Virus record (IMG/VR): IMGVR_UViG_3300009419_000013
Coordinates: 1-64,000 of that record
Length of the DNA stretch: 64,000 bases
From: a virus
Strand: one strand, 5' to 3'
This document shows positions 8,617 through 44,049 of this stretch, in pieces (the stretch's first letter is position 1; each line of letters starts with the position of its first letter). A model generated the notes under the pieces. That model was not told where the DNA came from, made no database searches, and was given only the letters and a program-made list of their open reading frames with translations. A program made the position numbers and the translations under genes.

Positions 8617-11600
8617 ATGGCAAATAAGGTAAAAATAGACTATTCTCAATTCAGAGCATCTGGAGTCTACACACTTGAGTTTGACGCATCTCAGAATGTT
8701 ATATTAACATCACAAACGATAAGACTGGTTGTTGGGTTTTCTAACAAGGGTCCTTTTAATACTCCGGTTTATATACCGGATGTTACTACAATGATATCGA
8801 TATTTGGAGATGTTGATAGATCATTAGAAAACAAGGGATCTTTTTTCCAAAGATCTATATTAACATGTTTAAATACAGGTCCTGTTTTCGCGTTAAATCT
8901 TTTAAGATTAAATGATGATGAGGAGACTGCAAATCCCGATAAAGTTACATATCAATCATATTCACTTGATACTGAAGAGTATAACGGTGAGGTAACTAGT
9001 AGATTATATTCATCCTACTATAACAAGGAGAGATTTTGGTTCGCTGATCCTAATTACTTTCTTGCTACATTAAGTGTTGCCGATCAAGGTAAGTTATTTA
9101 ATTTAACTAATCTTGGTAAGTCTCCGATGAGTATAATTACCAGAAAATCTACTGATTCATCTAGACCTCTTAGAGGATATGATATTTTCGCAATTGATTG
9201 GTATGGTGCGGATAACGTACCTAGCTTTATGCACCCATATGACTATATGGCTGACTATTTCATTGATGTTATTGCAGTATTCGGTGATTGGACAAATTAC
9301 CAAGCATTATCACTGGATCCTAGATGGAGCACATATTTTACCGATAATGGATTCATAAAAAGTAGAATTGATAGTTTCCTATCTGAACCTGATGTATCTA
9401 TAGTTACCTCAGTTACTGGATGTATTATCCCTGATTTTGTTGACCTTAATGGTGTTACTCAATACATTCAAGTATTAATAAACAATGGCACTCCTTCTAC
9501 TGGACTATTTTGTGCAATAGATGAACAAGCTTTTGATGATATATGTGCTAATGGATCTAAGATAGATCTAGTAGGTAATCACCTTATTGATGAATTAACT
9601 GGTGATAGTGACTTAGCTACTCCTAGAATCAATTTCTTAAGCTATGATCAAGTTCTTGTTGCTGATTATCTTTATACACAAAATGTAATAGGTGTAACCG
9701 GAGCTACCGGATTCAACAGCGCTACCGGAGCAACAGTTTATACTACGGGAGCTAAAGTAGGTACTTTATATACATTAACTGGAAATTCAGGGGCAACAGC
9801 TGGTATCGTTCAGCAATCATTTTTACCTTACGATCCTAATGCATATGATGGTGGATTACACTATCTACAAACTAGCGGAGCATATGGAACAACAGCGGGA
9901 TATTTACAAAATGCAGCCAATGTTAATTCACTTAAGACTTTCTTAACGGTAACATCATCGAATGACGAAAAATTCATACTGGGTGTAGTTTCTGGATATA
10001 CTGGAGGTTTAACCGGCGCATTACTTAATCAATTTGCTGAGGCTGATTTGGTTAAACTTAAAGTTACTGGTACCAGAGACATTTCAGGAACTCTTAGAAT
10101 TTTCTGGACGCATCCATTAGATACATCATTCTATAGAGGACAAGGTATAACAGTTACTCCAACATTTAATTTAACCTCATATAATACGGGAGCTTCTGGA
10201 AGTAATCCTTCATTCTATACTAATGCTTACCAATTTGGTAATTCTGATTATCTTGATATCATCAACGTAGCTACACCTAGTGGAGTTACAGGACCAGGAG
10301 CACCTGCAGGAACATCAAATGTACTTGTCGGATATAACGCTTCCCCACTTTTCCAAGATAATAAATATGCTGAAATCACTGATGGAGATCTTGCTTGGAC
10401 CAGCGCGGATGGAACTTCCCTTAGATACCTAGGCTTTGAATCAACAGTTGATAAGGATCAGTTTAATATGGTTTATACCAGAGCATTTAGTAACGTATCA
10501 AGAGCTAACGAAACGATTACAAACATACCAGCATTTGCTAGCACTTATGCTTCAAATAATATAGGTCTTCCTGTAGGACCACAAAATTTTGACATAATTT
10601 CGCAGGAAGGTTCGATTAACCAATTTGTAGATTGTACCAAAATAGACGTTACCACATTCTTGGTTACATTGGATAGTAATAGTAATGTTCCATTCTCGGT
10701 AGGAGATTTGGTAGTTTCTACTGATCTTGATATATGTGAACCTGCTACAGGGAACAGACAAAGTAGATTAGCAAAGATAACTTCTGTTGCTATGACAACA
10801 ACTCTAGGAACATATAGAGTTACTTCTGCTAGACCGGTTCTTTATTATACATCAGGAACAGGAGTAAGAGTTCAAAAATTCAAATCTATTGCTCAGTTTA
10901 CAAGATCTTTTGATTTCAGTTATTTAAGTGGATTCACTATGAATGAATCACATAGACCAAACGGAAGTGATGCTAGGATTTCTGAAATATTGGATGTTAT
11001 GTATGACACCAATATAGCTAAAACACTGGCTGCTAAGGACGTTATATCATTCAGATACATCGTGGATACTTTCTCTGGTCAAATATTACCTAACTCTAAA
11101 TACCAATTAAGTAGATTGGCTAAGCTTAGACAACAGGCATTAGCATTAATCAACGCTCCTTCAATGGCTCAATTTAGAGCAAGTACGGATCCTAGATTTA
11201 CTGATGCGCCTACAGCTTCTAATCCATATCCAAGATTAAATACTGCTTATATTGTAGACGGTGGTAATTTATCACTAAACCCATCTTACACATTTAGTTT
11301 ACCTAGTGAGGATGAAGGAGCTAAATATGCTGCTTTTTATTCACCTTACATTACAGTAAGAGAAAATAATAGAAACGTGGAAGTTCCACCTTCTGCTTAT
11401 GTTTCTAATAACTTCCTAAGAAAATTTGCAAACGGGGAACCTTATGCAATTATAGCAGGACAGAAAAGAGGGGTTATTAGTGGAGGTAATATAGTTGGAG
11501 TTGAGTATGATTTTACTGATGAAGATAGAGGAAATCTTGAACCATTCGGAATCAACCCAATTATAAAAAGAAGAGGTATCGGAGTGGTTATTTTTGGTAA

Positions 11601-11970
11601 CCAAACTGCATATCAGCAAGTTAATTCCGCATTTAACCTTGTTCACGTTAGAGATTTACTAATCAGTGTAGAAAATGATGTACAAGAAATATTAGCAAAT
11701 TATCTATTTGACTTCAATGACGATTCTATCAGACTTGAAATAAAAACATTAGTAGATAACTATCTGGATGGTGTTAGAGCAGGTGGGGGTATTTATGCTT
11801 ATCAGACTGTTATGGATGCTTCTAATAATACACCTGCAATCATTGATATGAATATGGGTATAATTGACATCATAATCGAACCAGCTAGAGGTATACAGAA
11901 ATTCATTAATAGAATCACTGTTACCAGAACTGGCGGAATCGCATCAGGAGGATTTATACAATTTGCATAA
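8617..11970 (+). CDS. Tail sheath protein (gp18-like) with large insertions
   Basis: SGVYTLEFD...VVGFSNKGPFNTP N-terminus; YSPYI...VPPSAYV...INPII...IFGNQT...VHVRDLL...FDFND C-terminus. Confidence 0.92.
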   Translation: MANKVKIDYSQFRASGVYTLEFDASQNVILTSQTIRLVVGFSNKGPFNTPVYIPDVTTMISIFGDVDRSLENKGSFFQRSILTCLNTGPVFALNLLRLNDDEETANPDKVTYQSYSLDTEEYNGEVTSRLYSSYYNKERFWFADPNYFLATLSVADQGKLFNLTNLGKSPMSIITRKSTDSSRPLRGYDIFAIDWYGADNVPSFMHPYDYMADYFIDVIAVFGDWTNYQALSLDPRWSTYFTDNGFIKSRIDSFLSEPDVSIVTSVTGCIIPDFVDLNGVTQYIQVLINNGTPSTGLFCAIDEQAFDDICANGSKIDLVGNHLIDELTGDSDLATPRINFLSYDQVLVADYLYTQNVIGVTGATGFNSATGATVYTTGAKVGTLYTLTGNSGATAGIVQQSFLPYDPNAYDGGLHYLQTSGAYGTTAGYLQNAANVNSLKTFLTVTSSNDEKFILGVVSGYTGGLTGALLNQFAEADLVKLKVTGTRDISGTLRIFWTHPLDTSFYRGQGITVTPTFNLTSYNTGASGSNPSFYTNAYQFGNSDYLDIINVATPSGVTGPGAPAGTSNVLVGYNASPLFQDNKYAEITDGDLAWTSADGTSLRYLGFESTVDKDQFNMVYTRAFSNVSRANETITNIPAFASTYASNNIGLPVGPQNFDIISQEGSINQFVDCTKIDVTTFLVTLDSNSNVPFSVGDLVVSTDLDICEPATGNRQSRLAKITSVAMTTTLGTYRVTSARPVLYYTSGTGVRVQKFKSIAQFTRSFDFSYLSGFTMNESHRPNGSDARISEILDVMYDTNIAKTLAAKDVISFRYIVDTFSGQILPNSKYQLSRLAKLRQQALALINAPSMAQFRASTDPRFTDAPTASNPYPRLNTAYIVDGGNLSLNPSYTFSLPSEDEGAKYAAFYSPYITVRENNRNVEVPPSAYVSNNFLRKFANGEPYAIIAGQKRGVISGGNIVGVEYDFTDEDRGNLEPFGINPIIKRRGIGVVIFGNQTAYQQVNSAFNLVHVRDLLISVENDVQEILANYLFDFNDDSIRLEIKTLVDNYLDGVRAGGGIYAYQTVMDASNNTPAIIDMNMGIIDIIIEPARGIQKFINRITVTRTGGIASGGFIQFA

Positions 11971-12000: not shown

Positions 12001-12555
12001 ATGGCAGGATTACCACATTTTCAAAATTCACTTTCAGGAACAAATAGATTTGAACCTGTTTACCTGAATCAATTTGAAGTTACTATAATTCCACCAGCTG
12101 CAGTAGCTGGTGGTGAAATTCTATTGCAGCACGTAACTAAAGTTAGCGGGCTATCATTAGATAAACACCCTGGATTAGCTACTCAGAAATATAAGTTTGC
12201 TAAAAGAAACTATGCTGGTGCTAAACCAGACCAAACGTACCTTGATTTAAGTTTAAGCTTCAATGTCAATCTTAACGATGATAATTCGATGTATGTATTT
12301 AAGACTTTAAGACAATGGTCAGATCTTATTTACAATCCGTTAACTGGAGCTATGGGACTTAAAAATGATTATGTTGGAACGATAGTAGTATCAATTTTCA
12401 ATAAGCAAGGTGACGTTTATAGAAGAATTACATGTAAGGATGCTTTTATAACTAAGCCAATAAGTCCAATGAATCTTAACTATACATCAACCGATCTTTA
12501 TAAAATAGATGATCTTCAATGGGCGGTTGATTACTGGGAAGATTTATTCCTATAA
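12001..12555 (+). CDS. Tail tube protein (gp19-like), copy 1
   Basis: Follows sheath; NQFEV, RQWSDLIYNPLTG, DYWE motifs; GATAAATA promoter variant at 11984-11991. Confidence 0.85.
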   Translation: MAGLPHFQNSLSGTNRFEPVYLNQFEVTIIPPAAVAGGEILLQHVTKVSGLSLDKHPGLATQKYKFAKRNYAGAKPDQTYLDLSLSFNVNLNDDNSMYVFKTLRQWSDLIYNPLTGAMGLKNDYVGTIVVSIFNKQGDVYRRITCKDAFITKPISPMNLNYTSTDLYKIDDLQWAVDYWEDLFL

Positions 12556-12571
12556 AAATTAAAAAATATAA

Positions 12572-13147
12572 ATGGCAGGATTACCACATTTTACGAACTC
12601 TAGAGCAGCGATAAACAATTTCGAACCTGTTTATCTTAACCAGTTTGAGGTTATCATTAACCCACCTGCTGGTATAGTCGATGCGTCAACGACATTCAAC
12701 GGTGAAGGTATATTAGCGCAGCAAGTTAAATCTATCACAGGATTGGCTGTTGATATAACTGCTAATGACCCAATACAGCAAAATTATAAATTTGCTACTA
12801 GAAGATATGCTGGTGGTGAACCATCAACAACAGATATGACCCTATCGATGGAATTTGAGGTCAATCTGAATGATGCCAATTCAATGACTGTCTATAAAAT
12901 ACTTAGACAATGGTCAGATTTAATCTATAATCCATTAACTGGAGCGATGGGTCTTAAATCGGATTATGTTGGATCCATGAGTATATCAATATTCAATAAG
13001 AGAGGTGACGTATTCAGAAGAATTAGAATACCATCTTGCTTTTTAAGTGAAGCAATAAATCCGATGGAGCTTGATTATGAAACTCCAGCAATATACACAA
13101 TTAATGCTAGCTGGATATGTGATTACTGGGAAGATTTATTCTTATAA
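12572..13147 (+). CDS. Tail tube protein (gp19-like), copy 2
   Basis: Paralog of 12001..12555 with identical termini MAGLPHF and DYWEDLFL. Confidence 0.85.
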   Translation: MAGLPHFTNSRAAINNFEPVYLNQFEVIINPPAGIVDASTTFNGEGILAQQVKSITGLAVDITANDPIQQNYKFATRRYAGGEPSTTDMTLSMEFEVNLNDANSMTVYKILRQWSDLIYNPLTGAMGLKSDYVGSMSISIFNKRGDVFRRIRIPSCFLSEAINPMELDYETPAIYTINASWICDYWEDLFL

Positions 13148-14510: not shown

Positions 14511-16073
14511 ATGGCAGACCAGAAACTAATATCGAGCATATTTGATCTCACTAAAAATGTGGATAAACTTTCTGGTGACATCAAAAAGAATGCTGCCAGT
14601 ACATCCGAGTTGGCTGCAGCTCAGGAAAAAAGTGCGGAAAGCACTAAAGATCTAGGTAAAGTAGCTGATAGCATAAAGGGATTAGATCTAAAAAGTTTGA
14701 AGGGTGAATTTTCACAGCTTACCAAAAGTATTGGTGGTCTTGACTTTAAGGGTCTTTCTGGTGATCTTAAAGCACTCGACTTCAAAGGATTATCTAAGGA
14801 TTTAAAATCATTGGACTTTAAGGGATTAACACAAGGAATAAAAGGTCTCGATCTTAAGGGAATTGTTAGTGGTGCTAAAGGATTAGATATTAAAGGGCTT
14901 TCTGGATCATTGGGAGATATTGGATCCCTTAAAGATACAATATCAGGATCACTTGGTGGTTTGCTAAAAGGCGGTAAGGGACTTTTAGGTGCATTCGAGA
15001 AGGGAGGACCAGTCAACAAAACAGGACAATACCTTGTCGGTGAAAAAGGACCGGAAATAGTTAAACTACAGCAAGGATCTGCTGTTATACCCAATAACAT
15101 ATTAAAAGCAAGACAAGATATTTTAAAAAAACTTGGAACTGATGCTCCGAGCGAGAAGGAAATATCGAATAAAAGGAAGGAACTTCTTTCATCAGATCCC
15201 CTATATTATGACGGTGAACCAGGCTGGTTAGAGGAAGATATTAATTCATATCTGGAAGGTCTCCAGGGAAAATCAACATCTGAATTTACACAGGAGGACC
15301 TAAAGAAATTAACCAAACCAGTAGATGCTAAAGCTGAAGCATTAGTAAATCCACTGGAAGCTCAAATTAAGGCTTCGAATAAAGAAAAAAATAAGGAAGA
15401 TAAATCCAAATTGAAAGAAAAAAAGGATGGATTATTTTCTAAAATTTTTGGAAAGAAAGATAAAAACGAAACCGAGGGTGAGGGAAAAAAATCAAAGTTT
15501 TCCGATCTGATATCTAAGGGTGGTGACCTACTAAAAGAAAACAAGGATGCCCTGAAAGGAAAGGCTTCCGAATTAGGATTAAGCGGAATGTCTGATATTC
15601 TTAAATCTAAAGGTGCTCCTGAAGGGATCATGAAATCCATCAAAGGTTTAAATAAGAAATCCGGAGGAGGTGAATCAGGTGGATTATTAAGTTCTGTTAA
15701 GGGATTGGTTAAGAAATCTGGAGATGACGAATCAGGTGGAATTAAGAGCGATATAGTTAAGCTATCTAAGAAGGAGAAAAAAAGTGGTTCGCCTAACGAA
15801 CCAATGCAGACGTCGCCAAATCAGGATACTAATGTTAAAAAAGCTGCAGAGGGAGCAATATCTAATAAAGCATCAGAATCATCCAATGCTGAAACAGTCA
15901 AATCCAAATCGGATTCAGCATCTTCGTCATCCGATGGAGGGGCAGGTCAAGTAACTGGAGCTGACCTAGCTGAAATAAAAATTCTTTTAGCAAAAATGGC
16001 AGCTAGTTTGGAAGGTACTTTGAGTGTTTCCCCATTAGAATCGCCATTTAGACCGGATTCTAGAAAATTCTAA
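14511..16073 (+). CDS. Tape-measure-like protein
   Basis: Amphipathic 12-aa repeats; FEKGGPV...YLVGEKGPEIV...GSAVIPN motif typical of tape-measure C-terminal regions; follows the chaperone pair; AATATATA promoter variant at 14491. Confidence 0.6.
   Translation: MADQKLISSIFDLTKNVDKLSGDIKKNAASTSELAAAQEKSAESTKDLGKVADSIKGLDLKSLKGEFSQLTKSIGGLDFKGLSGDLKALDFKGLSKDLKSLDFKGLTQGIKGLDLKGIVSGAKGLDIKGLSGSLGDIGSLKDTISGSLGGLLKGGKGLLGAFEKGGPVNKTGQYLVGEKGPEIVKLQQGSAVIPNNILKARQDILKKLGTDAPSEKEISNKRKELLSSDPLYYDGEPGWLEEDINSYLEGLQGKSTSEFTQEDLKKLTKPVDAKAEALVNPLEAQIKASNKEKNKEDKSKLKEKKDGLFSKIFGKKDKNETEGEGKKSKFSDLISKGGDLLKENKDALKGKASELGLSGMSDILKSKGAPEGIMKSIKGLNKKSGGGESGGLLSSVKGLVKKSGDDESGGIKSDIVKLSKKEKKSGSPNEPMQTSPNQDTNVKKAAEGAISNKASESSNAETVKSKSDSASSSSDGGAGQVTGADLAEIKILLAKMAASLEGTLSVSPLESPFRPDSRKF
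14739..14918 (+). repeat. Five degenerate 36-bp (12-aa) repeats, LDFKGLSxDLKx
   Basis: LDFKGLSGDLKA/LDFKGLSKDLKS/LDFKGLTQGIKG/LDLKGIVSGAKG/LDIKGLSGSLGD. Confidence 0.85.
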
Positions 16074-24246: not shown

Positions 24247-24732
24247 ATGGTAGATATAAAGAAAGTAAAACCTAACGGTGATCACAAATCTGGAAAATAT
24301 GCACCAAGAAATCCGGATAAGTATATAGGTGATATACATAATATCATCTATAGATCTTCATGGGAATATAGATTCTGTATCTACTGCGATACTAATGATT
24401 CTATATTAAAATGGAGTTCAGAGCCAGTTGCTATAGATTATTATAATCCTCTCGATAAAAAAGATCATAAGTATAATGTAGATTTCTATATAAAGGTGCA
24501 AAGGGAGGATCAAACCGAGCAGGACTGGATAATAGAAATAAAACCCGAAAACCAGACAAAGAAACCTATATATGAAGGTGTTAATACATTAGCAAAACTT
24601 AAATCATACAATAGAAATATGCAGATTTGGATAACAAATCAAGCAAAATTTAAAGCTGCTAAATTATGGGCAGAGAAGAGGGGATATAAATTCGGAGTTG
24701 TTGATGAGAATTTTTTATTTAAAAGTAAATAA
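24247..24732 (+). CDS. Head completion nuclease (T4 gp4-like, TnsA N-terminal fold)
   Basis: GKYAPRNPDKYIGD, YRSSWE, WSSEP, VDFYI, IEIKP, NQAKFKAA. Confidence 0.9.
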   Translation: MVDIKKVKPNGDHKSGKYAPRNPDKYIGDIHNIIYRSSWEYRFCIYCDTNDSILKWSSEPVAIDYYNPLDKKDHKYNVDFYIKVQREDQTEQDWIIEIKPENQTKKPIYEGVNTLAKLKSYNRNMQIWITNQAKFKAAKLWAEKRGYKFGVVDENFLFKSK

Positions 24733-25334
24733 TGTACTCTGATCTTGTTTTGGAATATAAAGATTCCATTGAAATTGGTAAGAATGTATTTACCGAGACT
24801 GATTTATATTTTTCTGATAACTATTTCTTTTCTAACAAGGAAATGATACAATTCAAACCTCCCTTTGTACCTGGAACAATATATAATTTCAACTATTTAA
24901 CGGATACTAGACTAAGTGAAACTAGAAAATTCATAGACAGAAGACCATTGATATTATGTACGAATGTATATCAAAATCCGAATTCTGGTACGATTATAGA
25001 GGGAATAGATATTATAACGGTTCCTCCCCGCATAAGAATAGATATAATAGGGAATTTTTATGATCAGTTTTATTCGCAGGTAGAATCAAATTATTTATCG
25101 TTCCAATCAGGAGGTGCAATTACACCAGTTAATTTAAAAAAGCCGCTATTAGAAAATCTGTTAAGAAACACCGGATATAATTTCTCATTATTTGGTTTTA
25201 AATATAAATTTATAAGAAATCCAAGAATAATATCTAATAAAGATTGGGCCAAAATTCCATATCTTACCGATAGTAACATAGAGGGGTTAAGCTTACAAAC
25301 GATATATAAGGAATATCAATCGAAATTAATTTAA
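24732..25334 (+). CDS. DNA end protector (T4 gp2-like)
   Basis: PGTIYNFNY...DRRPLIL...GIDI...PPRIR; adjacent to gp4. Confidence 0.55.
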   Translation: MYSDLVLEYKDSIEIGKNVFTETDLYFSDNYFFSNKEMIQFKPPFVPGTIYNFNYLTDTRLSETRKFIDRRPLILCTNVYQNPNSGTIIEGIDIITVPPRIRIDIIGNFYDQFYSQVESNYLSFQSGGAITPVNLKKPLLENLLRNTGYNFSLFGFKYKFIRNPRIISNKDWAKIPYLTDSNIEGLSLQTIYKEYQSKLI

Positions 25335-25371: not shown

Positions 25372-26970
25372 ATGGCAGGTTTTGTAGATAATAATGATCC
25401 TTCTCAAACTCCGGTAATACAGAGAATTAGAGATTCTGTAAGAAAAATTAGTTCATTTGGTATGAAATACGATGACATGGTCATTCGTAATTCACAGGCT
25501 GTTGGTGTTACTGAGGCTGCTTTTCTTAATAAGAATAAGTCCAATGTCGAGGACGAAAGCATGCTATGGACCTTAGCTAAGCAGGATATATCATCCAGAC
25601 AATTTATAGGATATTTTGATAAGGACTATAAGGGAAAGAGAGACTATCTTAGAAAATTCTCATTAAATCCTGAAGTTGAATGGGTTCTTGATACCATATG
25701 TGACGAGGCAATATCTTATGATCCATCGAATTTCTTTGCTTATCCTGATTTCATAGATCTTAGCGACGTTAATGAAAAAATAAAGGAAGATTTATATGAC
25801 TCTTATAAAAAACTTTATGATGTTTGGGGATTTTCCGATGATATAACAGCTTGGCAATATTTCAGACAATTTATAATAGATGGATTTCTTGCATTTGAGA
25901 TAATCTATGATAATAAGGGTGATAATATAATCGGATTTAAGGAATTGGATCCAATTACACTTATACCTAGTGTGGAGAAACAAATAGATGGTAGCTATCT
26001 TAGCACCTGGACACAGTATCCTCAGGATCCCAAGAGAAAAAGAGTATTATATGATCCGCAAATCATCTACATATCATATGCTAAGGGTAATAGCATATCA
26101 AGAATTAGCTACATAGAAAGATTAATAAGACCTTATAATATTCTAAGAATTATAGAATATACTAGGGTTATATGGTCGGTCATGAATGCATCATTTAAAC
26201 TTAAGATGACCATTCCAATAGGAAGCAAATCCCAACAGAAGGGTATGCAAACTTTGGGTGAGTTAATGAGTATCTATAAGGAAGATATTCAGCTGAATGA
26301 TGATAGTGGTGAACTTACTGTGGATGGTAGACCTAAAATACAATTCTATAAGAATTATCTGATGCCTTCAGGTGTTAATGGTACACCAACTATAGAACCT
26401 ATAAATACTGAGGGTCCTAATCTTAATGATCCTCAGCCTTTATCATACTTCTTTGACAAGTACATCCTTGAATCTAAAGTTCCACCATCCAGATTTCATA
26501 ATCCTGATGGCGGAACAACTTCGCCATATTCAAATGGTGCGGAAGGACTTGATAAGGAGGAAATTAGATTTGCTAAATTTATATCTAGACTTAGATCGGT
26601 ATTTCAGGAGATATTACTAAAACCTTTATGGATACAGATGGTCAAGAAACATAAATCACTTGATGAGGATTTTATGTTTAAGAGTCAGCTTGGATTAGAT
26701 TACGTTTCTGATAACCCATTCAAATTAAATCAGGAGATGGATTTAATAAATAAAAGGAAGGAAGCAGTCGTTGCAATGACCGGATTAATGGGGGATGAGG
26801 AAAAACCATATTTCTCTAGCGCATTTCTTATAGAGACTTTTCTTGGAATATCTAAACAGGATATCGATGCTAATAAAGAGGCATTAGAAAGAAAAGAGAA
26901 GGAGAAGAAAAAAGAGGAAGGTAAAAAAGAAGAGGGTGGAGAAGAGGAAGCTCCAGAAGTAACACTATAA
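25372..26970 (+). CDS. Portal protein (T4 gp20-like), copy 1
   Basis: LNPEVEWVLDTICDEAI, FRQFIIDG, ELDPI, SYIERLIRPYN, KVPPSR, EEIRFAKFISRLRSVF. Confidence 0.9.
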   Translation: MAGFVDNNDPSQTPVIQRIRDSVRKISSFGMKYDDMVIRNSQAVGVTEAAFLNKNKSNVEDESMLWTLAKQDISSRQFIGYFDKDYKGKRDYLRKFSLNPEVEWVLDTICDEAISYDPSNFFAYPDFIDLSDVNEKIKEDLYDSYKKLYDVWGFSDDITAWQYFRQFIIDGFLAFEIIYDNKGDNIIGFKELDPITLIPSVEKQIDGSYLSTWTQYPQDPKRKRVLYDPQIIYISYAKGNSISRISYIERLIRPYNILRIIEYTRVIWSVMNASFKLKMTIPIGSKSQQKGMQTLGELMSIYKEDIQLNDDSGELTVDGRPKIQFYKNYLMPSGVNGTPTIEPINTEGPNLNDPQPLSYFFDKYILESKVPPSRFHNPDGGTTSPYSNGAEGLDKEEIRFAKFISRLRSVFQEILLKPLWIQMVKKHKSLDEDFMFKSQLGLDYVSDNPFKLNQEMDLINKRKEAVVAMTGLMGDEEKPYFSSAFLIETFLGISKQDIDANKEALERKEKEKKKEEGKKEEGGEEEAPEVTL

Positions 26971-26974
26971 TAAG

Positions 26975-28591
26975 ATGGCAGGATTTTTAGACTTTTTAAA
27001 ACCGAATCAATCAGCTTTAGGTAATATACTAAAGAATCTTGGAAACATATCAAAATTTGGTATGCAGTACGATGATATGGTTGTAAAAAATTCTCAGGCT
27101 ATTGGTAAGACTGAGGGATTTTTCTATAATCAGGATGGTAATGGGTTTACACAGAATGATGCTTTCTATTGGACATCATCGTATCAAGACACCAAGGTAA
27201 GAAAATATATTGCATATTTTGACCGTGATTATATCGAGAAGAGGAATTACCTTAGAAAATTTTCACTTAACGGTGAGATAGAGTTTATATTAGATACTAT
27301 AACTGATGAAGCAATAGTGTATGATGATAGAAATTATTTTGCTCAGCCATCGTTTATAAATCTTGATCTTAAGGATAAGGTAAAAGATAAGATCTCGGAG
27401 CATTACAATAAGATCTATAATGTATTTGGATTTCAGAACACAATACTTGGGTGGCAATATTTTAAACAGTTTCTAATTGATGGATTTCTTGCATTTGAAA
27501 TAATATATGATAGCAAGGGAAAAAATGTGATTGGATTTAAAGAATTGGACCCAACCTCTCTTCAGCCTATAGTAGAAAAGATTGGTGAGGAAGAACATAA
27601 ACAATTCTGGATTCAGTATCCAAAAAACCCACAAATGACCAGAAAGCTAACTAATGAGCAGGTCATTTATATTTCATATGCTAAGGGAAATATGATAACT
27701 AGAGTTAGTTATGTAGAAAGACTAGTTAGGTCATATAATATTCTTAGAATAATGGAGAATTCTAGAATTATATGGAACGTAATGAATTCGTCATATAGAT
27801 TGAAATTTATTATACCTATTGGTACACAGTCTCAACAAAAAGCAATGCAGAATCTTGGTCAGTTAATGTCGAATTATAAGGAGGATATTAATATAAATGA
27901 TTCTTCTGGAGAATTAACAATAAACGGTAAACCCAAAATTCAATTCTATAAGAATTATTTATTTCCTGAAAAGGACGGTCAGAGTCCTCAGATAGAATCA
28001 CTTAATCCTAGTGGACCTGATTTTAATGTTATGGAGAATGTGGTTTATTTCTTCAATAAGCTTAAAATGGATTCAAAAATACCTTATGCTAGATTTGCAT
28101 CCAGAAATAGTACACCAGGTAATTATCAGACAAGCATAGATCAATTGGAAAGAGATGAAATTAGATTTGAAAAATTTCTGAGAAGACTTAGATCAATTTT
28201 CCAAGAGATATTAACTAAGCCTCTTTATATACAGATGTGTCTTGATAATCCCGAATTATCAAGGGATAAGAACTTTAAAGCAAATATAGGTCTTAATTAC
28301 AATAGAGACAGCGAATTCGAGGAAATGGTTGAAATGAGTAATTACACTAAGAGAACTGAATTTATAACTGGACTTGGCGAACTTAAGGTTAAGATAGGCG
28401 AGGAGGAGAAGGGATATTTCGATAAGAACTTTTTAATACAAAGATTTCTTGGTATGAACCCGGATCAAATAAGAATGAATGAAAAGTATAAGGAAGCTGA
28501 AGCAAAACTAGCTGAAAAAGCAGGCGGTGAAGCACCACCTGAAGGAGAAGCACCAGCTGAAGGCGAGGAAGCACCTGAGGTAACCCTATAA
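26975..28591 (+). CDS. Portal protein (T4 gp20-like), copy 2
   Basis: Full-length paralog: EIEFILDTITDEAI, FKQFLIDG, KIPYARF, RDEIRFEKFLRRLRSIF; same C-terminus EEAPEVTL. Confidence 0.9.
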   Translation: MAGFLDFLKPNQSALGNILKNLGNISKFGMQYDDMVVKNSQAIGKTEGFFYNQDGNGFTQNDAFYWTSSYQDTKVRKYIAYFDRDYIEKRNYLRKFSLNGEIEFILDTITDEAIVYDDRNYFAQPSFINLDLKDKVKDKISEHYNKIYNVFGFQNTILGWQYFKQFLIDGFLAFEIIYDSKGKNVIGFKELDPTSLQPIVEKIGEEEHKQFWIQYPKNPQMTRKLTNEQVIYISYAKGNMITRVSYVERLVRSYNILRIMENSRIIWNVMNSSYRLKFIIPIGTQSQQKAMQNLGQLMSNYKEDININDSSGELTINGKPKIQFYKNYLFPEKDGQSPQIESLNPSGPDFNVMENVVYFFNKLKMDSKIPYARFASRNSTPGNYQTSIDQLERDEIRFEKFLRRLRSIFQEILTKPLYIQMCLDNPELSRDKNFKANIGLNYNRDSEFEEMVEMSNYTKRTEFITGLGELKVKIGEEEKGYFDKNFLIQRFLGMNPDQIRMNEKYKEAEAKLAEKAGGEAPPEGEAPAEGEEAPEVTL

Positions 28592-28619: not shown

Positions 28620-29585
28620 TTGAACTTAATAGATAAATTTGGATCTGTTAGAATATTGATTATTGGTGACGTGATGCTAGATCATTATGTTCATGGTAGC
28701 GTTACTAGGATATCACCGGAGGCACCTGTACCTATATTGGATGTAACTCGTTCCGAATATTATTTAGGTGGATCTGGTAATGTTCTACTGAACATAAAAT
28801 CAATGGGTGGTAAGGCCGATATAATTACCATGACAGGGGAGGACATTCATGGCGATATGATCGATGAGCTAATATCTGAACATAGTAATAACTCATTCGT
28901 TCTAAAGGATAGGTTAAGAAAAACAACATTAAAATCGAGATACATTTCAGGATCCAATCAATTATTCAGAGTTGATGAGGAAAGCAAAGATTATCTGGAT
29001 CCCTTATTGGAGGAGAAAATAATCTCAGTATTCAATGATACATTTCTTAATTATGATTGTATATTGATAGAGGATTATAACAAAGGACTATTGACACCAG
29101 GTATAATAAAGAATGTGATATCCAGATGTAATTCTTCAGGAATTCCAGTTATAGTGGATCCTAAGATTTTTAATGTACCTAGCTACTCTGGATGCAAATT
29201 ACTAAAACCTAATTTATACGAATTTTCCATAATGACAGGGTTAGATTGTTCAGATTTAGATCTTACTGAACTGGAGGTTCATGCTCGTCAATTTATATCC
29301 GATAATAATATTGATTCGATGCTAGTAACTTTATCTGATAAAGGACTGATTTACGTAGATGTAAATGAATCTGTTTATGATCCAGGATACCCGATGGATG
29401 TTTATGATGTTTCCGGTGCTGGAGATACTGTTATCTCTATTTTAGCATTATGTATGGTAAGCAATATAGATATTAAAAAATCATTATCCATCTGTAATAT
29501 AGCTGCATCCATAGCATGCTCGAAGTCCGGGATAGCTTCAGTTGGTATAAATGAAATTCTAAATTCCAAATTTTATACATTCTAA
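28620..29585 (+). CDS. rfaE1: D-glycero-beta-D-manno-heptose-7-phosphate kinase (RfaE/HldE kinase domain only)
   Basis: IGDVMLDHY...RISPEAPVP, GGSGNV, DYNKGLL, VDPK, KPN, DVSGAGDTV. Confidence 0.88.
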   Translation: MNLIDKFGSVRILIIGDVMLDHYVHGSVTRISPEAPVPILDVTRSEYYLGGSGNVLLNIKSMGGKADIITMTGEDIHGDMIDELISEHSNNSFVLKDRLRKTTLKSRYISGSNQLFRVDEESKDYLDPLLEEKIISVFNDTFLNYDCILIEDYNKGLLTPGIIKNVISRCNSSGIPVIVDPKIFNVPSYSGCKLLKPNLYEFSIMTGLDCSDLDLTELEVHARQFISDNNIDSMLVTLSDKGLIYVDVNESVYDPGYPMDVYDVSGAGDTVISILALCMVSNIDIKKSLSICNIAASIACSKSGIASVGINEILNSKFYTF

Positions 29586-40370: not shown

Positions 40371-42341
40371 ATGCCAACAACCCAAAAGCTTAATGAAGAT
40401 TTAGTTTTCATCCTTGAAAGACAGGAGAGAGTACTTGAATCTAAGAAGACAGATTCGGAGGATGATTATGTTCTGGAAGGTATAGCAGCTGTTTTCGGAA
40501 AAGAAAACAATAATAATAGAATATACGAGGAAAATGAATATTTGCCTCATTTAGACTATCTTAAAGACAAAATCGCACAGAAGAGACTGGTTGGCGAATT
40601 GGATCATCCTGAAAAATTCGACGTTTCTCTTAAGAATATTTCTCATATTATAGAGGATCTCGCATATGATAAGGATAAGAGAGAACTTAAAATAAAGGTT
40701 AGACTTCTTGATACACCAGCTGGTATTATAGCTAAGAAATTAGTTGATGCCGGAGTACCACTTTCAATATCATCAAGAGCAGCTGGTTCAGTTGGTAATG
40801 ATAAAAAGGTTCAGATCAAGAAAATATTTACTTATGATTTAGTTGCTGATCCTGGTTTTCAGGATGCACAATTGGAAAGAGTATATGAAAGTGCAGGATT
40901 TAGTTTCGAAGACGTTTATAAAATGAGAAACAATACAATTTTAAACGGATTAACTTGCGTTAATGAATCTTTCGGTCTTAAAAATGAATCTTCAATGAAG
41001 ATATATAAAGTTGAAAATAACGAAGAATTCAACAATCTCGTAACAAAAACAGAAAAAAATAAAGAAATCCTTATGGAGAATAAAGAATTTGTTACTGCTG
41101 ATGACCTAAATCAATATTCTATTTTCTTGAAGAAAGAAATGGATTCAATGAAATCGGCTATAGCAGAAATTAACGAAAAGAGAGACTCAATTCAAGAATC
41201 TGAAAAAACATCTAATGATGATGTTGTTACAGCATTGGAAGAAAGAGTAGCTAAATTGGAAAAATATTCTGAGTACTTAGCTGAAAACTTAGATAACGCA
41301 ATTAAGTATGGAGAATACGTTGCTGAAAATCTAGATCAAAACATAACATATTCTAAGTATTTAGCTGAGAATTTGGATAAAAACATTTCTTATTCTAAAT
41401 ATTTAGCTGAGAATGTTGATAAATCTATATCTTATTCTGAATATGTAGCGGAGAGTGTAGATAAGAATATAGAGTATTCTAAATATTTAGCTGAAAAGGT
41501 AGATCAAAATATTTCATATTCTGAATACTTAGCTGAAAATGTTGATAATAGTATTTCTTACAGCGAGCACTTAGCAGAAAACTTAAATAAAGGTATTGCT
41601 TATACTGAATACGTTGCAGAAAAATTAAACGATGGTATCGAATATGCCGAGTATTTAGGAGAAAATCTAAATAAAAATATTCAATATTCAGACTATTTAG
41701 CTGAAAATCTAAATAAAGGTTTAGATTATTCTGAGTATTTAGCTGAAAAAGTTAAAAGATCTATATCTTACAGTGAATATATAGCAGAAAGCTTAAATAA
41801 TTCTGATATGAAATCAGTAGGACAAGATTTAATGGAAAGTGCATCAGTATCAGCATCAGCAGGTTTAAACGAATCTGGATTTGCAGGTAATTATGACAAC
41901 CTTTCAGACAAAATTGATAGTTTGGTAGAATCAGTTAAAACACAAAAAACTGAATCAAATATAAACGAAGCTTCAAAATCATTTGAAGCGCCAGCCAACA
42001 CACAAAAGGCACAAGAATCAGCTCTTAATGAAAACGAGAGCACAACAAAAACAGGTCTTAAGTTTATTGACGAAATGCCTGAAGAATTTGCACAAGTTTG
42101 GGAATCACTTAATGAAGGACACAAGCAATCAATCGTTGCTCAAAGTAACTTCTATAGATTAGATTCTCCTTACCAAATCAAAAACTTCTGGTCAACAAGA
42201 CAACTTGGAACCAAAACAGTTGGAGTTCAAAAATTGAACGAGAGCGAAGAAACAGTGCCAAGTGCAACAACACAAGCTTATTCAAGCGATTACATGGCTT
42301 CGATAGCTGCTGCACTAGAGCAAAAATTTCCAAAAAGATAA
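40371..42341 (+). CDS. Prohead protease (gp21-like) fused to a scaffold (gp22-like) domain
   Basis: LEGI, NNNNRIY, GELDHPE, ISH, LDTPAG, ISSRAAGS, TYDLVADPGF; C-terminal coiled-coil repeats. Confidence 0.92.
   Translation: MPTTQKLNEDLVFILERQERVLESKKTDSEDDYVLEGIAAVFGKENNNNRIYEENEYLPHLDYLKDKIAQKRLVGELDHPEKFDVSLKNISHIIEDLAYDKDKRELKIKVRLLDTPAGIIAKKLVDAGVPLSISSRAAGSVGNDKKVQIKKIFTYDLVADPGFQDAQLERVYESAGFSFEDVYKMRNNTILNGLTCVNESFGLKNESSMKIYKVENNEEFNNLVTKTEKNKEILMENKEFVTADDLNQYSIFLKKEMDSMKSAIAEINEKRDSIQESEKTSNDDVVTALEERVAKLEKYSEYLAENLDNAIKYGEYVAENLDQNITYSKYLAENLDKNISYSKYLAENVDKSISYSEYVAESVDKNIEYSKYLAEKVDQNISYSEYLAENVDNSISYSEHLAENLNKGIAYTEYVAEKLNDGIEYAEYLGENLNKNIQYSDYLAENLNKGLDYSEYLAEKVKRSISYSEYIAESLNNSDMKSVGQDLMESASVSASAGLNESGFAGNYDNLSDKIDSLVESVKTQKTESNINEASKSFEAPANTQKAQESALNENESTTKTGLKFIDEMPEEFAQVWESLNEGHKQSIVAQSNFYRLDSPYQIKNFWSTRQLGTKTVGVQKLNESEETVPSATTQAYSSDYMASIAAALEQKFPKR
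41265..41810 (+). repeat. 13 degenerate 42-bp (14-aa) tandem repeats, YSEYLAENLDKNIS
   Basis: Counted directly in the translation. Confidence 0.92.
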
Positions 42342-42357
42342 AAAATAAAAACAAATC

Positions 42358-44049
42358 ATGAAATTGATCAACGAACAAGAAATCTATGATACATGGTCTC
42401 CGATTATCGAGAGCAAAGCTGGTATCACAGAAGAAGGAAAAAAAGGATGGTTGACTAAATATTGTCATTATCATTCATTAAACGAGTCTGCAGGTGCTTA
42501 TAACACTTTAGGAGTTGTTAACGGTATGGGTGCAGTTGCGCCACCAGCATACCCAGGTATGGCATCTTTCCAAGGTGGTAATGCTAACGCTGGTTTCTAT
42601 AACACAGGAAATCAAGGATCTGGAGATAAATTCCCATCATTATTGCCATTAGCTATTCAGGTAGCTGCTAAGACTGTAGGTTTTGATATCGTTCCTGTTA
42701 TCCCTATGTCAGGACCAACTGGTATCTTATCTTACTTAGATTACGTATATTCAGGTGGTAAAATTGCTGGTGCTACATCTGCTACTTCAGGAGATTCATT
42801 AGCTAAAGCTCCTACAATGATTAAATTCCCAGTTGCACAAGGATCTTCTGCAGGTCTTACTGGTGCTACTGCTGGAACATTCGCAGTAGGTACTGTTTAC
42901 ACAGTTACTAATGGAGGTGTATTAACACTTAAATTCGTAGGTTTATCAAGAATCGATGGTTTCCCAATCTTCGAAATCGAAAACATTACTGATGGTTACA
43001 ATGTTGCTGGTATTATTACAGCTTCAGGAAGTTTCAACGTTGCTACTTCTACAATGTTTACTGCAGGTTCTGCACAATTAGTTAAAGCTTTAGAAGATCA
43101 TATCCAAGGATTCTCTGGTGCTGGTTTCAACAACACCGCTGACTGGCAAGGTCCTTACGTAGATGGTACTAAAACTTACAACCCTATGTTAAGAGGAGTT
43201 GGTGAGTCTACTTACTACAACTCAATGGGTCTTTCTACTTTCACTAAATTCGTGGAGGCTGAAACTTTCCAAGTTGCTGCTTCAGTTACAACTGAGCAAA
43301 TCCAAGATCTTAACAAACAATTCGGTATCGACGTTATCTCAATGATCGAGAACGCATTGGTTAATGAGGTTTCTCAAGCAATTAACAAACACATCTTATC
43401 AAGAGCATTCGCTTTAGGTTGGTCTAACCATAACCAATTCTTCAATGTTGAAAACCAAAACCTTAACTTGAACTTAGTTCTTGGTGGTGGTGCTGGTACA
43501 ACTTTAGCTTATGTTAACAAATCAGATGCTACACAATCTATGCCTATCCCAGCTGGACCAGCTACAGGAGGTTACGAGAACTTATCAACTTTACAAAGAA
43601 GATTATTCTCAAGAATCCTTGCAGGTGCTAACGTGGTAGCTAATAGAGGTAGAAGAGGTCCTGCTAACTTCGTAGTAACGAATGCAGCAGTTGCAAGTGC
43701 ACTTCAAGATATTTCTCAATTCACTTTCGCTCCATTCTCTAATACACTTACTCAAAATAACGGTACTTTATACCCTGTAGGTTCTCTTGCTGGTATGACA
43801 GTTTACGTAGATCAGAATATGAACTATAGCGATACAAGAGTATTAATTGGTAGAAAAGGTGGTGATGATGAACCAGGATTAAAATTCATGCCTTACATGA
43901 TGGCAGAATCGATTCAGACTATCTCTGAAGGTACAATGTCACCTAAAATCGCGGTTAAATCTAGATACGCTTTAGTAGAAGCTGGTTTCTTACCTGAAAC
44001 TATGTACTTAACATTATTCGTTAACGTACCTGCTGGTGGTTTAGCATAA
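42358..44049 (+). CDS. Major capsid protein (T4 gp23-like)
   Basis: TWSPIIES, VPVIPMSGPTG, TEQIQDL, EVSQAINK, RRGPANF, GSLAG, FMPY, PKIAVKSRYAL; strongly biased codon usage. Confidence 0.95.
   Translation: MKLINEQEIYDTWSPIIESKAGITEEGKKGWLTKYCHYHSLNESAGAYNTLGVVNGMGAVAPPAYPGMASFQGGNANAGFYNTGNQGSGDKFPSLLPLAIQVAAKTVGFDIVPVIPMSGPTGILSYLDYVYSGGKIAGATSATSGDSLAKAPTMIKFPVAQGSSAGLTGATAGTFAVGTVYTVTNGGVLTLKFVGLSRIDGFPIFEIENITDGYNVAGIITASGSFNVATSTMFTAGSAQLVKALEDHIQGFSGAGFNNTADWQGPYVDGTKTYNPMLRGVGESTYYNSMGLSTFTKFVEAETFQVAASVTTEQIQDLNKQFGIDVISMIENALVNEVSQAINKHILSRAFALGWSNHNQFFNVENQNLNLNLVLGGGAGTTLAYVNKSDATQSMPIPAGPATGGYENLSTLQRRLFSRILAGANVVANRGRRGPANFVVTNAAVASALQDISQFTFAPFSNTLTQNNGTLYPVGSLAGMTVYVDQNMNYSDTRVLIGRKGGDDEPGLKFMPYMMAESIQTISEGTMSPKIAVKSRYALVEAGFLPETMYLTLFVNVPAGGLA

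Follow-up and report, generated by a model that had tools for sequence, protein, structure and literature searches.

Why should a tailed phage carry two portal genes side by side? The portal is where assembly of the head begins; it serves as the dock of the packaging motor, registers headful pressure, acts as a gate for the DNA and connects to the tail, and to our knowledge it has always been described as a homododecamer that is encoded by one gene. The question arises from the uncultivated virus record IMGVR_UViG_3300009419_000013 of IMG/VR, in which an earlier note had described two adjacent open reading frames (ORFs) resembling gp20, the portal protein of phage T4. The window analysed here is the first 64 kb of this 74 kb record, for which CheckV gives a completeness of 27%; its G+C content is ~33% and nearly all of its genes are on the + strand. 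The sequence evidence argues firmly that both ORFs, called here paralogs A and B, encode intact and functional portal-fold proteins, which have been kept since one old duplication in a large group of uncultivated jumbo phages. We consider it probable, with considerable reserve, that they are subunits of one mixed portal ring.

The tandem portal genes

Paralog A (25372-26970, + strand) encodes a protein of 532 aa and paralog B (26975-28591, + strand) one of 538 aa, both of the gp20 family and both with the wing, stem, clip, tunnel loop and crown of a portal protein. Only 4 nt separate the two genes (26971-26974, + strand, TAAG, the junction being TAA-TAAG-ATG), and in this spacer neither a promoter nor a terminator was found. 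In profile searches the products scored 194.5 (A) and 234.8 bits (B) against PF07230, Portal_T4 (cut-off 22.9), with model positions 3-432/433 covered, and both matched PHROG 213, portal protein. Paralog B is somewhat nearer the gp20 family consensus than A, and each is ~20% identical to T4 gp20. The proteins can be aligned to each other end to end, with 51% identity over 518 aa and 7 gaps only, and the start MAGF and the end EEAPEVTL are common to both.

The monomer models of A and B that were built with AlphaFold on 93-sequence alignments (predicted local distance difference test, pLDDT, 76 and 74) have an identical order of helices and strands, element for element, and for both the top Foldseek match was to T4 gp20 chains (E 8e-19 and 2e-21). 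The description in the earlier note, namely two gp20-like ORFs 4 nt apart that keep the portal motifs and share their ends around diverged interiors, is thus upheld by the ORF coordinates, by the alignment and by the profile and structure matches of each copy.

Such a pair might have no functional meaning at all, being a recent or decaying duplicate or an artefact of assembly. The junction between A and B is, however, crossed by contigs of three other public runs, two of which come from other studies, with 0-7 differences. The pair is therefore not an assembly artefact; what bears on decay is given in the next two sections.

Distribution of the gene pair in related phages

A scan of IMG/VR with B as the query gave 227 related stretches, the best 80 of which were fetched (clade 1), and the representative P0003 of a deeper clade gave 184 stretches, of which again the best 80 were fetched. 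The two queries hit more than 400 contigs of IMG/VR in all, and 160 of these were examined. Every locus of clade 1 with enough flanking sequence has an ortholog of A (65-99% identical) directly 5' of an ortholog of B (68-98%), and A and B are near 50% identical to each other throughout these loci. The deeper clade has the same arrangement; its copies, A' and B', are 52-56% identical to A and 51-54% identical to B, respectively. The spacer between the two genes measures 1-23 nt in the relatives.

A six-frame check found two full-length portal genes, A then B, at 144 of the 160 loci, and one full gene with a second that is cut by the contig end at 15 more; one locus begins 20 nt before B. All 160 agree with the order A, then B. 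No single-copy locus was present among these 160 loci of the two clades. The random keeping of a single copy by relatives, which the earlier note had named as an observation that would speak against it, is thus not what is seen, and no copy has been lost in either clade. A disrupted copy was met once, on the 5 kb contig L133 (1542-3164), where A' is split into ORFs of 327 and 178 aa; either a sequencing error or a real pseudogene is possible.

In each of five complete genomes (319-434 kb, three with terminal repeats) the Portal_T4 profile matches exactly twice, both times in the tandem pair. The rule of one portal gene per genome, by which T4 gp20-type portals are characterised, therefore does not hold for these five genomes or for the 144 loci with two genes. 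The same five genomes each have one full-length gp23-type capsid gene, accompanied in 4/5 by a short gp24-like match, and one match to the prohead protease (PF03420). One capsid protein and one protease per complete genome indicate one kind of head.

The nearest lineages outside the two clades, represented by P0005-like IMG/VR contigs and by the huge phage LR756500, have a single portal gene. Among GenBank phage records 1997 match A at 1999 places, 1995 of them at one place each. The extra places belong to LR756501 and its twin record LR756503, and in LR756501, the one that was examined, the extra place is a fragment: this 735 kb genome has one full portal gene and, ~57 kb away, a 101-aa ORF (15166-15351, - strand) that covers profile positions 374-431 only. 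A phage with two portal paralogs or with a heteromeric portal was not found in the full-text literature, including a 2026 review of jumbo phages (PMC13282480), a body of text that leaves subscription journals mostly uncovered.

Close homologs in a collection of 5.8 billion proteins, where more than 2000 clusters exist, are all unnamed metagenomic proteins. One ortholog of A (P0166, 84% identical) has an NCBI entry in which it figures as a hypothetical protein from the metagenome-assembled genome of a 'Chitinophagia bacterium'; its contig is probably a phage contig that was binned with the host, and it gives a weak hint at a host among the Bacteroidota. The runs which hold most of the stretch are labelled as subsurface or freshwater metagenomes.

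Phylogeny and selection

In a tree of 135 rows the orthologs of A and those of B are each monophyletic (support 99-100) and are sisters of one another (99), and the internal branching of one clade mirrors that of the other. When the deeper clade was included, a mixture-model tree grouped A with A' (99), B with B' (90) and all four jointly (99), and the single-copy lineages fell outside. These topologies place one duplication before the split of the two clades, and from then on both copies have diverged together with their genomes. The alternative, a separate duplication in each clade, was also considered: a constraint that joins A' and B' costs 32.7 log-likelihood units and is rejected by the approximately unbiased (AU) test (p-AU 0.0245), a rejection which is only moderate evidence because the A'+B' group was named after the tree had been viewed. 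The expectation that relatives keep both copies as two ancient clades is thus borne out by the trees and by the AU test. Relative to the single-copy relatives A and B look about equally derived.

The ratio of nonsynonymous to synonymous substitution rates (dN/dS) was estimated by the Nei-Gojobori method over 60 distinct genome pairs, binned by dS. In every bin the median ratio stays within 0.022-0.026 (A) and 0.012-0.026 (B). Mean dN is practically the same for the two (0.174 for A and 0.173 for B), and across genome pairs the dN of A and that of B are correlated with r = 0.96. Neither portal copy is under relaxed selection, which the earlier note had listed as a finding that would count against two working copies; dN/dS is ~0.02 in both. 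One duplication followed by purifying selection on both copies is the ancestry that is expected of a ring made of paralogs.

These results also bear on the view that the pair is a meaningless duplicate. At 51% identity A and B are hardly recent, yet the pair stands in 160 loci and in five complete genomes; purifying selection is strong and equal on both copies, and the sole disrupted copy in the 160 loci is the A' of the short contig described above. Together with the independent contigs that bridge the junction this excludes both decay and artefact, as the earlier note had supposed.

Since both copies look fully competent, they might instead be alternative and interchangeable portals, with one type of homododecamer in each virion; such a pair might, for example, insure the phage against host defences that sense portal proteins, or serve it in different hosts or under different conditions. 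Portal proteins of phages are recognised by some bacterial sensors of the Avs type, and in principle these could be evaded with the help of a second portal of diverged sequence. Redundancy of this kind nevertheless predicts an occasional loss, and none is seen in 160 loci over a deep divergence; a mere decoy would not need a dN/dS of 0.02 across every functional domain. With the 1-23 nt spacing and what is taken as a single promoter, no independent regulation is visible either, and the fixed, conserved differences of the channel (next section) favour complementary over redundant roles. The absence of any loss and of any visible separate regulation leads us to regard interchangeable portals as improbable.

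Divergence of the portal domains

The domains of A and B follow one another as in the portal fold, that is wing, stem, clip, tunnel loop and crown, according to the AlphaFold models and the alignment. The limits of the T4 domains (PMC4493910) were transferred to A and B through HMMER alignments (gp20 residues 250-520), and the identity between A and B of the same genome was then taken domain by domain. It is highest in the first stem helix (0.74), followed by the clip (0.57) and the wing (0.55-0.56), and it falls to 0.34 in the channel-side stem helix, 0.31 in the crown and 0.30 in the tunnel loop. Orthologs of one and the same paralog are 0.71-0.86 identical in the channel-side stem helix and in the tunnel loop. 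High identity within a paralog and low identity between paralogs mean that the divergence of the channel helix and of the tunnel loop is fixed and paralog-specific, and is not drift.

The tunnel-loop region of A (26476-26541, + strand, residues ~369-390) carries the A-specific motif ...SRFHNPDGG..SPYSNGAEGLDKEE. It is predicted with low pLDDT between helices 355-368 and 390-411, aligns to residues 374-398 of T4 gp20 (PMC4493910), and has an identity of 0.71 among A orthologs and of 0.30 to B. The corresponding region of B (28076-28138, + strand, residues ~368-388) carries the B-specific motif ...ARFASRNSTPGNYQTSIDQLERDE. Across clade 1, 28 positions are fixed differently in A and B, and their density per site is greatest in the channel-side stem helix (0.29), with 0.12 in the first stem helix and 0.10 both in the alpha-8 part of the wing and in the clip.

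Between A and B the strands of the clip (GEL..G.PK.QFYKNYL.P) hardly differ. In T4 gp20 these strands make the only main-chain contact, a sheet, between subunits (PMC4493910); the clip and the outer stem helix form this inter-subunit beta-sheet and bind the terminase and the neck, and the channel helix, the tunnel loop and the crown gate the DNA and respond to headful pressure.

A channel that differs so constantly between the paralogs, with 0.71-0.86 identity within and 0.30-0.34 between them and with 28 fixed differences, is a sign of real specialisation, and it could mean that A and B each build a homo-oligomeric ring of their own and that the two rings serve different purposes. The true portal, at the vertex of packaging and tail attachment, would be one of them; the other would resemble a portal but sit in another place, for instance on top of the portal within the head, at an inner core as its anchor, or at a second special vertex. 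Extra internal structures of the head are known in jumbo phages (PMC13282480), which makes such an arrangement conceivable. Against it stand the full clip of both paralogs and the conservation, likewise in both, of those parts to which terminase and neck bind in T4. A and B evolve at the same rate; tight co-translation and near-identical interface strands would make mixed rings hard to avoid; and only one capsid protein and one protease are encoded. Fixed roles are also hard to square with a C-terminal tip which, as described below, is carried by A or by B depending on the lineage. Two separate rings are for these reasons rather unlikely in our view, though clearly less so than interchangeable portals.

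C-terminal tails

Both proteins end in a tail of low complexity. That of A (26884-26967, + strand) is a Lys/Glu-rich linker with the tip EEAPEVTL at 26944-26967, and that of B (28508-28588, + strand) is an acidic linker rich in Ala, Pro, Gly and Glu with the same tip at 28565-28588. Across most genomes the tips are APEVTL, PPQVTL, APAVTI, DTATL, EAVTL and alike; A and B of one genome share their tip, which varies from genome to genome. Partners from the same genome have 5.74 identical positions among their last 8 residues, against 4.38 for shuffled partners, and 0/5000 shuffles reach 5.74, a comparison in which relatedness is ignored; an N-terminal control segment gave no such matching within genomes. 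The tail is the sole region where the identity between A and B of one genome (0.45) equals that between orthologs of different genomes (0.44).

Identical tips differ by 4 synonymous changes in the window and in the relatives L032 and L037, and the identity of the tip is thus kept at the protein level. Gene conversion was considered as the sole cause of identical tips and is ruled out by these differences, which number up to 4. A general cargo or targeting tag was likewise rejected: in the complete relative G001 (373 kb) no ORF among ~505 has an acidic linker and an xVTL tip except A and B.

A hydrophobic C-terminus is present in both paralogs in 59 of 107 distinct pairs, in A only in 33 (most of the deep clade, plus L058, L059 and L063) and in B only in 15 (the L008 and L065 groups); it is absent from both in 0/107, so that the paralog which carries it switches between lineages. 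Single-copy relatives also end in hydrophobic or aromatic residues, and the tip is therefore ancestral. The suggestion in the earlier note that the tail is a recognition signal for the protease found no support, there being at the tip no (L/I)-x-E site, which we take to be the site of T4-type prohead proteases. The tail bears more resemblance to a flexible, acidic linker whose hydrophobic end serves to anchor a partner common to both proteins.

Composition of the portal ring

Co-expressed paralogs of a homomeric ring co-assemble by default unless their interfaces diverge. We are inclined to think that A and B do so, and that the two are subunits of one mixed portal ring; this reading has in our judgement a modest advantage. 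A single ancient tandem duplication of a T4-type portal gene would have given rise to A and B, which would be co-transcribed from one late promoter, translated back to back and assembled in the same ring, a hetero-dodecamer with perhaps a 6+6 alternation, at the one portal vertex. In the clip and in the outer stem helix the two would have stayed alike; the stem helix that lines the channel would have become paralog-specific, and so would the tunnel loop and the crown, the DNA channel and gate being then lined by two kinds of loop. The hydrophobic tip probably anchors one shared internal partner, for which scaffold or core is a guess, and either paralog could supply it because both subunits would lie in one ring.

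Several observations fit a mixed ring. The genes are adjacent and apparently co-transcribed, the clip that forms the interface is conserved between them, and A and B evolve at an equal rate. Their tails track each other, as expected if there is one shared partner, and either of them can contribute the ancestral tip. The universal retention of A followed by B, in genomes with one type of head, favours it further. The more exact proposal of an obligate and ordered A6B6 hetero-dodecameric portal, with alternating tunnel loops and crowns and 6-fold symmetry, is tentative, and on the same sequences we hold it to be a possible rather than a probable form of the ring.

Other observations weigh against the mixed ring. 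Conservation of the clip is equally expected if each paralog forms its own ring and this ring binds the terminase or the neck, and among the 28 fixed differences between A and B there are no charge reversals and no clear signs of an asymmetric interface. The rates of A and B still covary in part after neighbouring genes have been controlled for (mirror-tree/partial Mantel, r = 0.54, p = 0.001), but the unrelated pair u200-clamp equals this value (0.56), so that the covariation is not specific and not decisive. As regards the tips, a 28-nt identical run in L050 indicates that occasional gene conversion could add to their similarity. Under independence ~4.6 pairs with a hydrophobic C-terminus in neither paralog would be expected against the 0 observed, a modest excess over expectation and an estimate that ignores phylogeny, and the strict tip motif is absent from both paralogs in 4/107 pairs. 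Co-assembly, stoichiometry, subunit order, the identity of the partner and the promoter are all things that we infer.

Genomic context

A box resembling a late promoter, GATATATA (25301-25308, + strand), stands 64 nt 5' of portal A and is a putative promoter. The window has 15 such boxes, 14 of them on the + strand, a count that is not above chance (11.3 expected), so only the placement and the strand bias are suggestive. No box lies between A and B, and the one upstream of A is the only one for the pair. The operon-like layout, the spacer of 1-23 nt and the single upstream box are compatible with co-expression, and A and B would accordingly share their transcription from this one candidate late promoter.

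The genes upstream of A and B encode a gp55-like late sigma factor, a head-closure protein similar to T4 gp4 (24247-24732, + strand; PHROG 218, E 1.9e-46) and a 200-aa protein (24732-25334, + strand). The gp4-like protein also has an N-terminal match to a TnsA-like endonuclease domain (PF08722, E 1.5e-17). The 200-aa protein has no family match and occupies the position of the 'DNA end protector' gene in phage PTm1; its rate covaries with that of both portals once neighbouring genes are controlled for (partial r 0.55 with A and 0.47 with B, 19 genomes). Downstream of the pair are genes for a PfkB-family kinase, a DNA ligase and a clamp loader. The first of these (28620-29585, + strand), directly 3' of portal B, is a carbohydrate or nucleoside kinase (PF00294, E 3e-28) that sits between structural and replication genes and also matches PHROG 8133, a family without known function.

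On the same strand, 12-15 kb downstream of A and B, are the genes encoding a prohead protease fused to a scaffold-like C-terminal part (40371-42341, + strand; PHROG 207, single copy) and a gp23-like major capsid protein (42358-44049, + strand; PHROG 138 and 28442, single full-length copy), and the setting of head morphogenesis is thus present. The protease domain takes up the first ~310 aa of the 656-aa product and is followed by the long C-terminal part; for the homolog in PTm1 the annotation reads 'prohead core scaffolding protein and protease'. One GATATATA box lies inside this gene, at 41000.

A second tandem pair of paralogs (12001-12555 and 12572-13147, both + strand) encodes proteins of 184 and 191 aa that are 56% identical. 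They match PHROG 32623 and, weakly, tail-tube families, and come directly after the gene of a 1117-aa tail sheath protein (8617-11970). These would be neighbouring ring proteins, both of them tube-like, and the complete relative G001 has the pair too. In that genome only 9 paralog pairs were counted among its ORFs, and tandem paralogs of glycosyltransferase family 25, 33% identical, are found at 240458-241771.

Significance and comparison with known systems

The family and the fold of A and B are known; the gene arrangement is new, and the composition of the ring is probably new as well. A widespread lineage that has kept two diverged portal genes for very long makes it testable whether a portal ring can be heteromeric, and the pair lets the contribution of each set of tunnel loop and crown to packaging and gating be probed. 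How the symmetry mismatch between the 5-fold capsid, the 12-fold portal and the 6-fold tail is handled also becomes testable where the ring itself may be 6-fold. An A6B6 ring, if true, would hard-wire a two-state DNA gate or sensor, would pre-adapt a 12-fold portal to the 6-fold neck and tail, and would be the first heteromeric portal in the lineage of tailed phages and herpesviruses. The lineage also offers a natural example of a homomeric part of a viral machine that gained complexity after duplication. Annotation pipelines and marker counts in the style of CheckV presume one portal per genome and would misread such genomes.

Among known portals, T4 gp20 (PF07230; PDB 3JA7, 6UZC, 9MKB) has the same family, fold and domain order as A and B, and an acidic, disordered C-terminal end in common with them. 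The surroundings are also those of the T4 head module, with a gp4-like head-closure protein, a gp21-like protease and a gp23-like capsid protein. T4 differs in having one portal gene and a homododecamer, whereas here two paralogs have been retained. The nearest relatives in GenBank, at 30-44% identity, are the portals of huge phages or megaphages (LR756500-LR756504, the Prevotella Lak phages and Tenacibaculum phage PTm1). These too are phages of large genome size, and LR756500 shares the MAGF start; unlike the A/B pair, the huge-phage portals examined are present as a single full-length copy.

The gp23 and gp24 proteins of T4 are likewise the products of a duplicated structural gene of the head, both copies occurring in one virion at complementary positions. 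They are, however, paralogs of the capsid shell that occupy different positions of the lattice, and not of a portal ring. Also comparable are the hetero-rings of paralogs that arose from a homomeric ancestor, such as the Vma3/11/16 c-ring of the fungal V-ATPase, the proteasome, CCT and MCM2-7. With these A and B have in common the duplication of a ring subunit, a probable co-expression, long retention and complementary partial losses, here those of the C-terminal tip. In Vma3/11/16, the proteasome, CCT and MCM2-7 co-assembly is experimentally established, whereas for A and B it is the evolution of their sequences that points to it.

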